From Escherichia coli (GTDB lineage Bacteria > Pseudomonadota > Gammaproteobacteria > Enterobacterales > Enterobacteriaceae): a stretch of DNA of 64,000 nt. Location: the NCBI RefSeq assembly GCF_017348835.2, contig NZ_CP071375.1; one strand, written 5' to 3'. This document shows, piece after piece, positions 57,001 to 63,000 of the stretch; within the stretch, counting starts at the first letter, position 1; each line of letters begins with the position of its first letter. The position numbers were made by a program.

Positions 57001-60000
57001 TCGCAGGAACAGGCATCGTCACTGTCTGGATGTTAGTGCATTGTAGATATTTTTTAATGGTGTTTTCATTAAATCCGATTTCTTTGAAATGCCGCTCATA
57101 AGGTTCAAAATGCGTACGAACAGCGTTATCTACCATCAGGATCTCGCCGTCAGAGAAGGCGTAATCTTTATCTAAAATGTTAGCGTTGAAGGCATGATGA
57201 ATAAATATAACAGAACAAACGAGCGACATTTTATCTCCTTAAAACAATAAAGTTTTTATCGATATTTTTTTAACATTTCATATTTATAATTTGCTGTTTA
57301 TTTTCAGTCTCGCAAACTATTGATAATGAAATGTGTAAGATCTCTTGCAATGCGACCCATTTCTGAAATACCCAGCTGATCAATTGCCGAAAAAATGGCT
57401 ATCAACGTAAGCGTCAGTAATAAGACAACCACAATTACAGACATGATCTCTTTATAGTTGTCTCGTTGCGTGATTTTATTTTTCACTGTGGTCGCATGCA
57501 TTTCAAATGTGTTTATTAAGCGAATAACGTTAAGCATCGTTAATCAGTATGCTTAATATAACAGGCCGGAGAAAAGAGGAAATAGGACTGGCGCTTCAGT
57601 ACTGAACGGAGTTTCTTACAGCTGTAGGCAGAATTTTATATCTTATAGTATGTAGTTTAATTTAATCCATGTGAGCAAATTGCGCGATAATAGTCAATGA
57701 GGGATTCTTCTGCTGTGTGGATGACAGCAGAAGAAGTGAGAAGAGGCATTAATTTGATGGTTCTAATTCAACCGGAATACTTTTATAGCCAGGAATGCCA
57801 CTTAAGGGATCGTGGTTATCGAGTGTTAGCATGTGATTCGATTCTGGAAAATAGGTCACCAGTGAGCGGTCAGCCATAGGGTAAATGACCACTTTTAATC
57901 TATCCATGCGGCGTGAGCTGCGCTTACCGTCTGGCGTAAGCGCAATAAGATTAACTCTTTCGCCGTTTTTTACACGGCAAATTTTAGCTTGTTTAGCACT
58001 CATAAAGACCACATCTCGTTGACCGAATACCCCTCGATAGCGATCATCCATACCATAAATCGTCGTGTTGTACTGATCGTGGCTGCGTACTGTCGCCATG
58101 ACCAGCTTACTGTTAAACGCTGAAGAGGGATCTTCTAACAGCCCTTTGCTGGTAATGAAATTAGCCTTACCTGACGGCGTCATCCAGCGCCTTTCAGCAG
58201 CTGCATTTATCAGGTGAAAACCACCGGGATGACGGATGCGCTGGTTATAGTCGGCGAACTCTGGCAGCACAGCTTCAATGTCATTGCGAATGCGATCATA
58301 ATCTTCCACCAGATACTCCCAGGCTACCACGCTCTGGGGTAGTGCTGCCTGTGCGATTCCCGCGACCACTGCACACTCTGATTTCAGCATTACACCGGCG
58401 GGTTTTAACACGCCACGCGAGGCATGAATCATCGACATTGAATCCTCAACGGTTACCGCCTGCGCACCGCTTTTTTGCATGTCAATCTCGCTACGCCCCA
58501 GAACCGGCAGAATATAGCTATGCCGTGCGGTCAGCAGATGAGAGCGGTTAAGCTTAGTGGCTACGTGTACCGCCAAATCTAATTGCGTTAACGGTACAGC
58601 GCTCGCTTCCCGATCTGGCATTGCCAGTGCAAAGTTGCCCCCCATGCAGATCAATGCTCGAGCCTGCCCCGTACATATTGCTTGCATGCTGGCAATTGCA
58701 GCATGTCCAGGTGCATGAGGTGGGGTGAAGCCATAGCGCTCACCCAGGCGAGCCAGAAACTCTGCAGACGGTTTCTCGGTGATACCGACGGTTCGGTCGC
58801 CCTGTACATTAGAGTGACCACGTAGTGGGCAGATACCCGCACCAGGCTTGCCAATGTTACCTTTCATCAACAGCAAATTGACCAGTTGCTGTACATTCTG
58901 GGTACCATGTTCGTGCTGAGTGATCCCCATTCCGTAACAGATAATGGTGCGTTCGGCAGCGGCATATGCATCAGCCAGTTCGGCGATTTGAGTCTGACTT
59001 AGTCCAGAAATACGTTCGATATCTTTCCACTCGGAATTGAGAACGTCACGACGTAGCTCGTCAAAGCCGACGGTATGCGTTTGAATAAATTCGTCATCCA
59101 GCAATGAGGGCCGACCTGCGGCGCTTGCAGCATCATCGCGCTCAATTAACAGGCGCATCATCCCTTTGAGCAACGCCATATCGCCACCAATGCGCACGTT
59201 ATAGTAGGCACTGGCCAACTGAGTCTCAGAGTTCGTCAGCATTTCAAACGGGTTTTGCGGTGCGGTAAATCGCTCCAGGCCACGTTCCTGTAGAGGGTTT
59301 ATGGCGATCATTTTCGCGCCCCGTTTCACTAAAGCGCGCAACGAAGTCAGCATGCGAGGGTGGTTTGTACCAGGGTTATGCCCAATGCAAATGACTAAAT
59401 CGCACTTCTCAAAGTCTTCCAGCAACACGGTCCCTTTACCTACACCGATACTCGCTGCCAAACCCACGCTTGTCGGTTCATGGCACATGTTGGAGCAGTC
59501 GGGAAAGTTATTGCTCCCGTATTCACGGGCAAAAAGCTGATAAAGAAAGGCAGCTTCATTGGAAGTGCGGCCCGAAGTATAGAATTCAACCTGATTGGGA
59601 TCACTATAGCTTTGAAGGCGTGCGCCAATTTCATCGAAAGCTTGTTGCCAGCTTAATGGCTTGTAACAGTCGCTGACGGCATCATATTTCAAAGGCTGAG
59701 TGAGTCGCCCCGCAGCCTCAAGCTCGTGGTCTCCCCAGGTAAGTAATGATTGAACCGTATTCTCAGCAAAGAAAGAGGCGTTTACCTGCTTATCCGTGAC
59801 TTCCCAGGCGATTGCTTTTGCGCCGTTTTCACAAATGTCGAATGACGCACTGTGCTTAGGATCTGGCCATGCACAACCCGGACAGTCAAAGCCCTCTGGC
59901 TTATTCATGTCAAACATGGCAATAACATCCTGGCGTATATCCATCTGCTTACGTACTGCATTCGCTACGGATTTAACAGCACCCCAACCACCGGCAGCAC

Positions 60001-63000
60001 CCTGGTAGGATTCAATTTTTTTCTTCATCTACTTATCCTGTGTGGAAATGAATTATTAGGATTTGTAATAGCGATGATGCACAGTACATAAAAAGGGATT
60101 ATCGCCAACATGGATATATAAGAGTAGGGGACTACTCTCTTTCTATTTTTAATCTATTATCGTTAAACAATAGATTAAATACGATAAGGTAAGCATCATC
60201 TCTCATAGTGTTTAAATTAACATATTTTTTAATATAAAAAATAAGACTCTGGCTTCAATTGTGCGCGGATTTTCTTACAGGTGTAGGATAATAGCCTTCA
60301 CAAAATAATTATCCGCGCAATTTTCGTGAATGGAGCGCATAGACTAAGGTCAAAATCACAATTATTCATAGATAAAAGTGACACCAATGACTGACTGGAC
60401 GGTTCCGGCTGAAACCTTGTTTCCTGTTTGTCCATAGGTTGCGCTTAAACCCAGAGGTACTTTGCTTTTATTTACTGTCCCCAGGGAGATATTTTCTCCC
60501 GTAGCCAGTATTTTTCCATTACGCATCAGAGAGACACCCACTCCCGATGCTTTTGTTGCATCAGATGCTGTGTTAGCAAACACTTGTCGGGCACTGTCAG
60601 TGGTGGCACCCGAAAGATAAAATGAGAGCTTTTGTTCGCTTGAGCAATATACGCCAAGGGGTATTTCTGCGCTTCCAGGAAAGTCCGGGAGATTCACGGT
60701 GACATTACGACTATCAACAGTGCAGCCGCCTGTTGGCATAACAACACTGTTATTTGAAATAATATTCCACGTAAAATTACGCGGATTTCCGCTTCCTAAC
60801 GTGGCAATTTTATACATATGAATACGGGCAATAACTTCCCCGGCTTTTATGACAACTCCACCGGCCGCCCCGACTGGGGTAATATAGAGTTTTAACGGTA
60901 ATGGCATCGGTGTCTTATCACCAATATCCAATACGTTGGTATTTGTCGTCAACGGGAAGGGGTAGGTCACACTATTCCAGTACAGCGATCCTTTATATGA
61001 CTGTAGGGAGCCTGCGAAAGCTGAGCCTTGTACCAGGTTTATATGATCAGTATCGTACCAGCCGCCGTAATCATTCCAGCAACTTATATGCTGAGACAAG
61101 TCTACAACCAGATTCTGTCCCGGCTGTATTACAGGGTCGAGATTAACATAAACAGAGGTTGTACCTGCTCCAATACTTGACCCGCCATCGACATTACAAC
61201 TGAAGGCAAAAACTTTGCCTGCCATTAATAGAAGATAAATACCGAACAGGACCTTTATACTGATTGTTTTACCCATGATATATCCTAAGGTTAAAAAATT
61301 GATTTAAAAAGAAGGCTAAGAAAATCGAATCGACGTTATTGCCAGGTGTAGATCACATTGATTAGCGCCTCGATCGTTCCCTGGCTTGTGTTTCCATTCA
61401 CCGTGATAGCTCTTGCCTTAAGTGGAAACTGTGCATTACGAGTGATCTCATCAACAATAACCGTTTTGCTATCGCCATTTTTTAACGTCGCATCCTGGTC
61501 ATCCCTCAGCTCTATCTGAATATTTTCGGCAGTACCTTCATTTTTGTAATAACCCGTATTGTCAGTTGAACCTGTCACGATTGCCGTCACTGCACTTGTT
61601 TCAGCCGGACAATCGGTTAATGACAAAGTAATATTGTGCCAGCTAGATGCAGAACCAGGTTGTTGCAGATTGCGCGTATAAAGATCCCCGAGATTAACGT
61701 TAGCTTCTTTGGTTTGAATAGTGCAGGGTTTAGCGACTACCCGACCATTAACAGTGATAGTGACATCGGCGGCCTGGAGAGTTGCTGTGAATAACGCGCA
61801 AAACGTAGCTAACAGGAACCTCTTGTGAAGTCTTTTCATATCTGACTCTGATTATTGAAATTCAAGGGTAAAGGTTGCCGAAGCCCTCACCAGTCCCGGA
61901 TTGACGGACTTCTGAGTTGACTTCAGACGAGCGGAGTAAGGCAAAATATTGTTCTGTTCTGGTACCAGTGGGATCCACTGCATCCCGGCATGAAGGTCAT
62001 TCAATTTCACCGGACGCATATTTCCGTCCAGTATTTCTATACCCAAACCGGAGGCCGTATTGCTTCCTTCATCCAGTTTCAACAGAGTATTATTTTCTGC
62101 ATCCTCAATACCGTTAAATGCAACCCGAACCCCCGTTGTCCCTTTACTGCATTCACTTAACGTAATCTGAAAAGGGACGGCTGGACTTGTGCTACCGGTC
62201 GTTGGAAATTGTCTGGCACTGTTTTTTTGGAGATCTACGGTAAAATTAAGCGAATCCGATGAGACTGTGCAGCCATAATCCAGGACGCGCCCGCTAATTT
62301 TAATAACGCTATCTGCGGATAAAGCAGAATAGGTGGTTAACCCCAGACATAAACCGAGGAAAATAACGTTATTGTATTTCATAATCTATTGTTCCTTAGC
62401 GACAGATTGCTGTCTGCTGGTTCAGCAAGGTTCCAGGAGAGACTTCAGGAAGCTTGTAATCGACAATACAGTTTGAGTTTTTATCATTGCCCCATGAAAC
62501 CTGTAATTTCCCTGACTGTGGAAGTCCAGTCAGATAAACCTGACCATTTTCCGCGACAATGCTGCCATTTTTATTCTCTCCGTGAGTGACAATTGCACCG
62601 AATGGAACGCTTTTATTACCGTACTTCAACGTCATTAATACTTTCCCGCCGATTTGTGCATTAAATGTTGCTCTGGCAATAGCACCGTGAGTTGGGATGA
62701 CAGTGACTACGGTTTCATCCAGTTCAACATTATCTGCAAGGGAATTCGCGTTAAGAGCGACACGATTTTCTCTATATTCTGTCGCAAATGGTAATATTGC
62801 ATAGCCACGCCAGTCGGTATGAATTCCGGTCTGGTTCTCTATTTTGACATTATCAGCGCCAGGAGCCTTAACCAGAACCATTGTGTCGCCCAGCGGCTGT
62901 CCAAAGGTGATGCCATCAGCGTGAGCAATAATCCCACCACTCATTCCGTAATAAATCTGGCTGCTGTCATCACTCCGACTGTAACCGACATTCGTATTAC

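Follow-up and report, generated by a model that had tools for sequence, protein, structure and literature searches.

Two 18-bp inverted repeats that flank ydeP in a 64-kb stretch of the Escherichia coli chromosome (the window) are very probably, at a probability of about 0.93 by our estimate from sequence, context and literature taken together, the EvgA operators of the adjacent acid-inducible promoters PydeP and PsafA-ydeO. Both operators are already known, and the window confirms established biology. Our own observations concern the sequences of the two boxes, which are statistically unique, the promoter setting in which they lie, how closely they are related to other sites of the EvgA regulon and how they are conserved, while EvgA dependence and direct binding are taken from the literature. 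As operators, the boxes are the entry point of the acid-resistance cascade that leads from EvgA over SafA/YdeO to GadE and that matters for the survival of E. coli and Shigella in stomach acid.

Two near-identical boxes upstream of safA-ydeO and ydeP

The window is 99.99% identical to E. coli strain PE164, and gene coordinates were taken from a RefSeq record that is 100% identical to the window. An earlier note, made from the sequence alone, had pointed to two near-identical EvgA-box-like repeats, and both 18-mers were found at exactly the positions it gave. Read on the plus strand, the safA-ydeO box is TTCTTACAGCTGTAGGCA (57613-57630) and the ydeP box is TTCTTACAGGTGTAGGAT (60272-60289). The genes and elements of the region are the following, with the boxes given in gene orientation and scored with the position weight matrix (PWM) described below.

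45667-45686, minus strand: perfect GAD box (GadE site), TTAGGATTTTGTTATTTAAA, upstream of gadB; lower end of the cascade
56468-57229, minus strand: ydeO, AraC-family activator of gadE and second gene of the safA-ydeO unit (PMC4222967)
57304-57501, minus strand: safA (b1500), whose small membrane product connects EvgS/EvgA with PhoQ/PhoP; first gene after the box at 57613 (PMC9496106)
57613..57630, minus strand: probable EvgA box of the safA-ydeO promoter, TGCCTACA-GC-TGTAAGAA; PWM score 21.4 bits, rank 2 in the window
57705..57735, minus strand: hairpin with a 12-bp stem that directly follows the end of ydeP (stop codon) and precedes the safA box; -17.1 kcal/mol, z -5.4
57749-60028, minus strand: ydeP, putative oxidoreductase, acid resistance; probable target of the box at 60272
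60272..60289, minus strand: probable EvgA box of the ydeP promoter, ATCCTACA-CC-TGTAAGAA; PWM score 23.4 bits, rank 1 in the window
60362-61276, minus strand: ydeQ, neighbouring gene

Because the genes lie on the minus strand, the first box is upstream of safA and downstream of ydeP. It precedes the safA ATG by 112 nt and lies 119 nt past the ydeP stop codon, and the second box is 244 nt before the ydeP ATG, so that the description of the pair as flanking ydeP is literally right. In both boxes the promoter-distal half is imperfect, and the perfect half-site of the safA-ydeO box is the promoter-proximal one. The hairpin that follows the ydeP stop codon may be a terminator or a stabiliser of the mRNA end; in the divergent lineage L006 its stem is retained and its loop replaced.

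Gene coordinates and published data place both boxes in non-coding DNA upstream of units known to be activated by EvgA (PMC9496106, PMC4283999, PMC11210196). A passage in PMC9496106 states, citing Itou 2009, that EvgA binds the safA-ydeO promoter of K-12 directly. Activated EvgA strongly up-regulates the ydeP promoter, and an EvgA binding site is present in all genes known to be directly EvgA-regulated (PMC4283999); ydeP and ydeO are likewise described as directly EvgA-activated (PMC11210196). The proposal that the boxes belong to the EvgA to SafA/YdeO to GadE cascade is therefore supported, since one box lies upstream of each of the two units described as direct EvgA targets.

The boxes fit the EvgA consensus and resemble other EvgA-regulon sites

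The 16-mer TTCTTACANNTGTAGG is common to both boxes and occurs exactly twice in the window and nowhere else in it, compared with 0 occurrences in 100 dinucleotide-preserving shuffles. The EvgA consensus reportedly reads TTCYTACA-N2-TGTARGAA, a string said to go back to work of Masuda and Church from 2003 and of Itou and colleagues from 2009, and was cross-checked by K-12 sites. Searching 64 kb with the consensus TTCYTACANNTGTARGAA at ≤1 mismatch returned these two sites only, against 0.00 expected and with one mismatch each, in agreement with the claimed fit to this string; even at ≤3 mismatches, the window held no site beyond the two boxes. A full-text literature search for the motif string gave nothing relevant.

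We take the window boxes to be the orthologues of the EvgA boxes of ydeP and b1500(safA)-ydeO in K-12 (those of Masuda & Church 2003 and Itou, Eguchi & Utsumi 2009), where gene order and spacing are the same and the ydeP box is one base apart. The motif was also matched 4 times in the K-12 evgA neighbourhood (0.31 expected), in all cases upstream of emrK/evgA, frc (yfdW) or yfdX, the last of which has two sites, and one further K-12 match lies upstream of yegR. These operators carry the same 18-bp repeat in a similarly intergenic upstream position, but their flanks differ from those of the window boxes, and the frc site is a perfect palindrome, unlike the window boxes with their imperfect distal halves. 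The gene for the regulator itself, evgA, is outside the window; 5398 of 5426 complete E. coli genomes carry it.

The five other EvgA-regulon sites (emrK, frc, yfdX with two, and yegR) served as the training set for a PWM from which the window boxes were left out. The K-12 gadE upstream region has no site at ≤3 mismatches, and gadE could therefore not be added to the matrix. In the scan that the earlier note had asked for, the two boxes came first and second by a wide margin, the next site in the window scoring 8.4 bits and the maximum of 30 shuffles 19.4, a cross-check with some circularity, since it was this same consensus that had led to the training sites.

Both boxes precede promoters of similar layout

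Downstream of the boxes we located the following elements.

57555..57563, minus strand: TGTTATATT, extended -10-like element of the putative safA promoter; begins 49 nt after the box
57580..57589, minus strand: further conserved element downstream of the safA box, at offsets 24-33: AGTCCTATTT
60206, minus strand: inferred ydeP transcription start (A), at -178 from the ATG, equal to the 5' end of the ydeP leader in PMC11210196
60214..60222, minus strand: extended -10-like element TGTTAATTT of the putative ydeP promoter; begins 49 nt after the box, 8 nt upstream of the position -178 from the ATG
60239..60248, minus strand: further conserved element downstream of the ydeP box, at offsets 24-33 (roughly -42 to -33): AGTCTTATTT

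The distance from the box to TGTTAWWTT is the same 49 nt in both promoters. At safA, TGTTATATT has no variable column in 6 E. coli and reads TGCTATATT in the divergent lineage. When the 66 nt that follow each box are compared in fixed register, 38 of 66 positions are identical between safA and ydeP (17.9 ± 3.4 in shuffles), a likeness that is significant only in the register set beforehand by the box; free local alignment of the two promoters outside the box falls short of significance (z 1.6). Among the free local alignments outside the box, only that of ydeP and yegR is significant (z 4.4), the two having TTTAAACACTA(T)GAGAG in common at the -10/start-site region. At most other EvgA-regulon promoters a hexamer resembling a -10 follows the box at about 52-59 nt, and at yegR the -10 is about 5 nt further from the box.

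The ydeP leader probe of PMC11210196 spans -178 to +10, and other leaders listed there begin at published start sites. From this description we infer that ydeP transcription starts at -178 from the ATG, which would put the box centre at about -74.5, a position compatible with upstream activation if the start is indeed there. For safA, a start site at about 57547-57548 is predicted from the sequence. The supplements of Seo et al. 2015, in which start sites were sought, hold expression values only. A promoter scan returned TTGAAG-16-TATATT, a candidate pair located after the ydeP box and before the extended -10; we did not adopt it as the ydeP promoter, since safA lacks a counterpart and the pair misfits the 178-nt leader. 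If this pair were the real ydeP promoter, the box would be at about -56.

A second element, of the type AGTCYTATTT, recurs in register (offsets 24-33) at emrK, yegR, frc and yfdX, as in the window promoters, and is invariant across Escherichia lineages. EvgA is named after the paralogous BvgA two-component system, and at the Bordetella fha and ptx promoters BvgA, a NarL/FixJ-family regulator, acts from a far-upstream inverted repeat with cooperative secondary sites down to -35. The similarity of EvgS/EvgA to BvgS/BvgA is noted in PMC9496106, and the EvgA promoters, too, are conserved in the stretch that separates primary site and core promoter. The second element does not resemble a half-site; it was considered as a third EvgA half-site in a BvgA-like array and rejected for now, given that a half-site PWM applied to offsets 1-94 of six promoters gave no positive mean score at any offset (best -2.7). 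The window promoters thus differ from those of BvgA in having no secondary half-site between box and -10 by this matrix, and a BvgA-like array is not supported.

The half-site cores are conserved and the ydeP box is polymorphic

Across 7 Escherichia genomes, a small sample, neither the proximal half TGTAAGAA nor the CCTAC core varies, and changes within the boxes are found in the spacer (GC/GT/GA; CC/CT), at distal-half positions 1-2 and, in the divergent lineage only, at position 8. Most box variation across diverse Escherichia genomes falls in the 2-nt spacer. Compared with the divergent lineage, the boxes retain 89-94% identity, as against 49-57% for the DNA upstream of them. Outside Escherichia, no box accompanies the ydeP homologues of Edwardsiella (85% identity at the amino acid level), Yersinia, Raoultella, Burkholderiaceae and others (best score <10), which fits the statement that EvgS/EvgA and SafA are confined to E. 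coli and Shigella (PMC9496106).

The safA box is identical to that of K-12. In the ydeP box one base differs, distal-half position 2 being T in the window (ATCCTACA) and G in K-12 (AGCCTACA), and the T form is nearer to the consensus, with one mismatch as opposed to two in K-12. Of 5319 matching E. coli records, 1269 contain the exact 40-mer around the window ydeP box, and lineage L006, the divergent one, also has the T.

A tentative proposal, which we consider rather doubtful when all its parts are taken jointly, is that EvgA-activated promoters are kindred modules of ~100 nt, few in number and all laid out alike (box, 49 nt, extended -10) with AGTCYTATTT in common at about -42 to -33, that AGTCYTATTT marks an undescribed second contact, made by a further EvgA protomer or by the alpha or sigma-4 domain of RNA polymerase, and that the G/T polymorphism of the ydeP box tunes induction strength between E. 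coli lineages. The shared architecture, the second element and the natural variant could refine the picture of EvgA activation, if only incrementally.

How EvgA would act at the two operators

At mildly acidic pH, EvgS would phosphorylate EvgA, a BvgA-like member of the NarL/FixJ family, and an EvgA dimer would occupy each repeat, with each TTCYTACA half-site contacted by one helix-turn-helix and the 2-nt spacer unread. Centred ~74 nt upstream of the start, EvgA would activate a sigma-70 promoter with an extended -10 (TGTTAWWTT) and no good -35, presumably by recruitment of RNA polymerase and/or by relief of H-NS silencing in these AT-rich regions. PydeP would then supply YdeP, and PsafA-ydeO would supply SafA, the link to PhoQ/PhoP, together with the gadE activator YdeO, after which GadE would act at the GAD box of gadBC, likewise in the window.

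Alternative explanations

Short palindromes are common in AT-rich intergenic DNA, and with a GC content of 0.32-0.38 the two regions could be suspected of holding similar repeats by chance and without function. This reading is effectively refuted and has next to no probability left: an exact 16-nt match occurs twice when shuffles yield none, the consensus is matched twice at ≤1 mismatch when no match is expected, the same motif precedes other EvgA-regulon promoters at five sites, and the spacer differs between lineages whose half-site cores are all the same. It is very unlikely, too, that a promoter-plus-leader was copied between genes and that the likeness reflects common descent in place of a shared regulator, although the likeness does run past the box, with 38 of 66 positions identical in register and equal spacing to the -10, and ydeP and yegR share TTTAAACACTA(T)GAGAG. 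Common descent and function are not exclusive; identity outside the box is ~58%, but the box keeps 16 of 18 specified-or-spacer positions, and substitutions within populations largely spare the half-site cores. As the free alignment of safA and ydeP outside the box is not significant, any duplication would be old and the box preserved by selection.

Members of the LuxR/NarL superfamily bind short inverted repeats, and YdeO is reported as an indirect repressor of ydeP and as a repressor of its own expression (PMC11210196), so the boxes might belong to another helix-turn-helix regulator such as GadE, RcsB, DctR, NarL/NarP or YdeO acting in feedback. We consider this highly improbable. The GadE site in the window is a different 20-mer without similarity to the boxes, and the 7-2-7 arrangement of NarL has TAC and GTA 10 nt apart as opposed to 4 nt in the boxes; moreover, the motif co-occurs specifically with genes reported to be EvgA-dependent, including the evgA-emrK control region, and in PMC4283999 the site is described for known EvgA targets only. 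A possibility of more substance, if still an unlikely one, keeps the operators as EvgA sites and changes the mechanism, EvgA at about -74 mainly displacing H-NS without contacting RNA polymerase. The regions are AT-rich and probably horizontally acquired (intergenic GC 0.32 and 0.38, and 0.38 in safA-ydeO coding DNA, the window as a whole having 0.485), the gad network counts H-NS among its regulators (PMC4222967, PMC3708157), and a centre at -74.5 is far upstream for direct contact with sigma. However, the 49-nt spacing from box to extended -10 is strictly kept in promoters that differ at 42% of positions, which points to stereospecific contact of EvgA with the transcription machinery; pure anti-silencing could do without such spacing.

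The lower end of the cascade

With the boxes read as EvgA operators, the window holds both ends of the cascade. Using what we take to be the GAD-box string, we recovered the perfect site at 45667-45686 upstream of gadB, where the earlier note had placed the end point. The GAD box of gadA and gadBC and its regulator GadE belong to the same acid-resistance cascade, and GadE to the same LuxR-type superfamily as EvgA, but the 20-nt sequence is unrelated, the regulator is a different one, and the site is one tier lower in the cascade. The gadB frameshift annotated in the nearest RefSeq genome was considered and dismissed for the window, where the gadB reading frame (45587-44187) is intact and its product is identical to PDB 1PMM.

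EvgA boxes upstream of safA-ydeO and ydeP

The earlier note had placed two near-identical EvgA-box-like inverted repeats on either side of ydeP. Both positions were right: TTCTTACAGCTGTAGGCA lies at 57613-57630 in the safA-ydeO promoter (the safA box) and TTCTTACAGGTGTAGGAT at 60272-60289 upstream of ydeP (the ydeP box). The annotated genes around them are as follows.

56468-57229, minus strand, ydeO
57304-57501, minus strand, safA
57749-60028, minus strand, ydeP
60362-61276, minus strand, ydeQ

The claimed near-identity was borne out by a common core, TTCTTACANNTGTAGG, which occurs twice in the window and not once in 100 dinucleotide-preserving shuffles. 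Each box also fits, with one mismatch apiece, the proposed motif TTCYTACANNTGTARGAA, which we take to be the EvgA consensus. There was no third match in the 64 kb at up to three mismatches, the number expected at up to one mismatch was 0.00, and the two-box pattern is confirmed to be far beyond chance. Read in gene orientation, the safA box is TGCCTACA-GC-TGTAAGAA and the ydeP box ATCCTACA-CC-TGTAAGAA; they precede the ATG codons of safA and ydeP by 112 and 244 nt, respectively, and the promoter-proximal half-site is perfect in each.

The consensus string reportedly goes back to work by Masuda & Church in 2003 and Itou et al. in 2009, and we cross-checked it on other EvgA-regulon promoters. 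Within 20 kb around K-12 evgA the pattern matched four times against 0.31 expected, and all four matches lie upstream of reportedly EvgA-dependent genes, namely in the emrK-evgA intergenic region, at frc, where the box is a perfect palindrome, and twice at yfdX; a further K-12 box was found 107 nt upstream of yegR. These five pattern-matched sites were symmetrised into a weight matrix from which ydeP and safA were left out. In the matrix scan suggested by the earlier note, the two boxes scored 23.4 and 21.4 bits, inside the training-site range of 19-27, compared with 8.4 bits for the next-best (third) site of the window and a top score of 19.4 over 30 shuffled windows. EvgA is known to bind the safA-ydeO promoter directly (PMC9496106), activated EvgA strongly up-regulates the ydeP promoter, every known directly EvgA-regulated gene has an EvgA binding site (PMC4283999), and both ydeP and ydeO are activated by EvgA (PMC11210196). 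The scan and the literature support the reading that the boxes are the EvgA operators of ydeP and safA-ydeO, with K-12 orthologues differing by one base. Both operators are already known; mildly new at most are the promoter architecture common to both, the second element and the natural variant of the ydeP box described below, and nothing else.

Among the seven boxes from the window and two K-12 loci (L004 and L057), position 4 of the half-site is C distally and T proximally in five and the reverse in none, the exceptions being frc (T/T) and yegR (C/C); seven boxes are too few for significance.

Shared architecture of the two promoters

The likeness of the two promoters extends beyond the box. 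In the ungapped register set by the boxes, the 66 nt that follow them (57547-57612 and 60206-60271, minus strand) are identical at 38 positions, compared with 17.9 +/- 3.4 and a maximum of 32 in 5000 shuffles. With the register shifted by at most 12 nt in either direction, only 8-20 of 54 positions agreed vs 31 of 54 in register, and among all 127,868 66-mers of the window the partner alone reached 38/66. Common to both promoters is an extended -10-like element, TGTTAWWTT, 49 nt past the box, with zero variable columns among the sampled E. coli genomes, and a second element lies between it and the box.

57563-57555, minus strand, extended -10-like element TGTTATATT of safA, exactly 49 nt past the box
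60222-60214, minus strand, extended -10-like element TGTTAATTT of ydeP, exactly 49 nt past the box
57580-57589, minus strand, second element AGTCCTATTT of the safA promoter
60239-60248, minus strand, second element AGTCTTATTT of the ydeP promoter, about -42 to -33

Judged by their sequences, the ydeP and safA promoters seem to be a single module in two copies.

The ydeP leader used in a published study runs from -178 to +10 (PMC11210196), and other leaders in the same list start at published start sites (cf. the gadE starts, PMC3708157). Position -178 of ydeP is an A at 60206, 8 nt past the -10 hexamer, and a start at this position would centre the ydeP box at -74.5. The same 49-nt spacing at safA predicts the same placement, with a start near 57547. 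Neither promoter has a good -35, as expected if they are activator-dependent. The earlier note had also asked whether the start sites are compatible with activation from the boxes; on the inferred ydeP and predicted safA starts, the box positions fit upstream activation. A promoter scan proposed TTGAAG-16-TATATT as an alternative promoter of ydeP; we did not adopt it, as safA lacks an equivalent pair and the 178-nt leader is at odds with it.

When six EvgA promoters were aligned on their boxes, the second element stood out as a further information peak at offsets 24-33 past the box, with the consensus a.TC.tATTt; these 10 columns carry 13.2 bits, where controls average 5.5 and peak at 10.1. 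At safA and ydeP its consensus is AGTCYTATTT, unchanged in 7/7 Escherichia genomes, and the promoters of emrK, yegR, frc and yfdX have similar elements in register. With some 20 nt between it and the -10 hexamer downstream, the second element is too distant to be a normal -35. It could be explained by secondary EvgA sites in a BvgA-like array; this is unsupported, since the EvgA half-site matrix did not recognise it as a half-site.

Around the -10 and start site, TTTAAACACTA(T)GAGAG is common to ydeP and yegR. We also observed a small conserved hairpin, AGAGTAG / CTACTCT (60119-60140, minus strand), in the inferred ydeP 5' leader, some 70-85 nt past the inferred start; the scan flagged a terminator-like structure there on the other strand.

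Conservation and spread of the boxes

We aligned both intergenic regions from seven genomes: the window, K-12, four diverse E. coli and L006, a divergent Escherichia lineage whose YdeP is 96% identical. Neither the proximal half TGTAAGAA nor the CCTAC core varied in any of them, and variation was found in the 2-nt spacer (GC/GT/GA at safA, CC/CT at ydeP), in distal half-site positions 1-2 and, once, in L006, at position 8. Comparison with L006 gives 89-94% identity in the boxes, as opposed to 49-57%, with indels, in the DNA upstream of them. At position 2 of the ydeP box (60288, minus strand) the window has T (ATCCTACA) and K-12 has G (AGCCTACA). The T variant is nearer to the consensus, and 1269 of 5319 matching E. 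coli records contain the exact 40-mer of the window at this box. L006 also has T, which may thus be ancestral, and the G/T variant could change EvgA affinity.

No EvgA box was found upstream of the non-Escherichia ydeP homologues scanned (Edwardsiella, 85% aa; Yersinia rohdei, 67%; Raoultella, Tatumella and many Burkholderiaceae, 45-57%), the best score being <10, in agreement with the restriction of EvgS/EvgA and SafA to E. coli and Shigella (PMC9496106). YdeP identity is 85% in Edwardsiella (L007, L008, L010, L049) and 56-67% in Yersinia, Raoultella and Tatumella (L009, L011, L012), and genera more closely related to Escherichia than these yielded no close ydeP copy; the patchy distribution suggests that ydeP spread by horizontal transfer. 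Copies 100% identical to E. coli ydeP were seen on a 'Candidatus Nanosynbacter sp.' contig (L005, JARKOR010000108.1), with both boxes, and on a shorter contig of 'uncultured bacterium UMGS1713' (L043, USHE01000194.1), with the safA box; most likely, both reflect E. coli contamination of metagenome bins.

The evgA gene lies outside the window and was found in 5398 of 5426 complete E. coli genomes. IS1 interrupts it in NCM3722 and in several laboratory strains related to NCM3722 (H111-H115), in which the boxes would be orphaned.

Cascade end point and genomic setting

The earlier note had located the end point of the EvgA-SafA/YdeO-GadE acid-resistance cascade in the window, and a perfect GAD box (GadE site) does lie at 45667-45686 upstream of gadB.

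44187-45587, minus strand, gadB, reading frame intact, 100% identical to crystallised GadB (PDB 1PMM)
57705-57735, minus strand, hairpin with a perfect 12-bp stem (-17.1 kcal/mol, z -5.4)

This hairpin follows directly 3' of the ydeP stop codon, before the safA box, and has no T-run; in L006 the stem is retained and the loop swapped. It is probably a terminator or 3'-end stabiliser that parts ydeP from the safA promoter, and its position fits ydeP and safA-ydeO as separately controlled units.

The region is E. coli chromosome, 95-99% identical in almost all of 5,394 complete genomes and 100% identical over 4.2 kb in the pig isolate PE164, the nearest RefSeq genome, from which the window differs over 50 kb by four substitutions and one 2-nt indel. 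The indel in the PE164 record is the reason why gadB is annotated there as a frameshifted pseudogene, and it may be an assembly error. The PE164 annotation further gives two pseudogenes, ddpA with an internal stop and an ompC paralogue with a frameshift, the type III effector gene espR1 (8989-10242) adjoining narU and, between osmC and ddpF, which are neighbours in K-12, an accessory cluster (~23857-30602) of 3-hydroxybutyrate dehydrogenase, GntP permease, thiolase, CoA-transferase A/B and LysR regulator genes. As expected for formate dehydrogenase-N, fdnG contains the Rfam selenocysteine insertion element SECIS_3 (14789-14847, plus strand, 84 bits).
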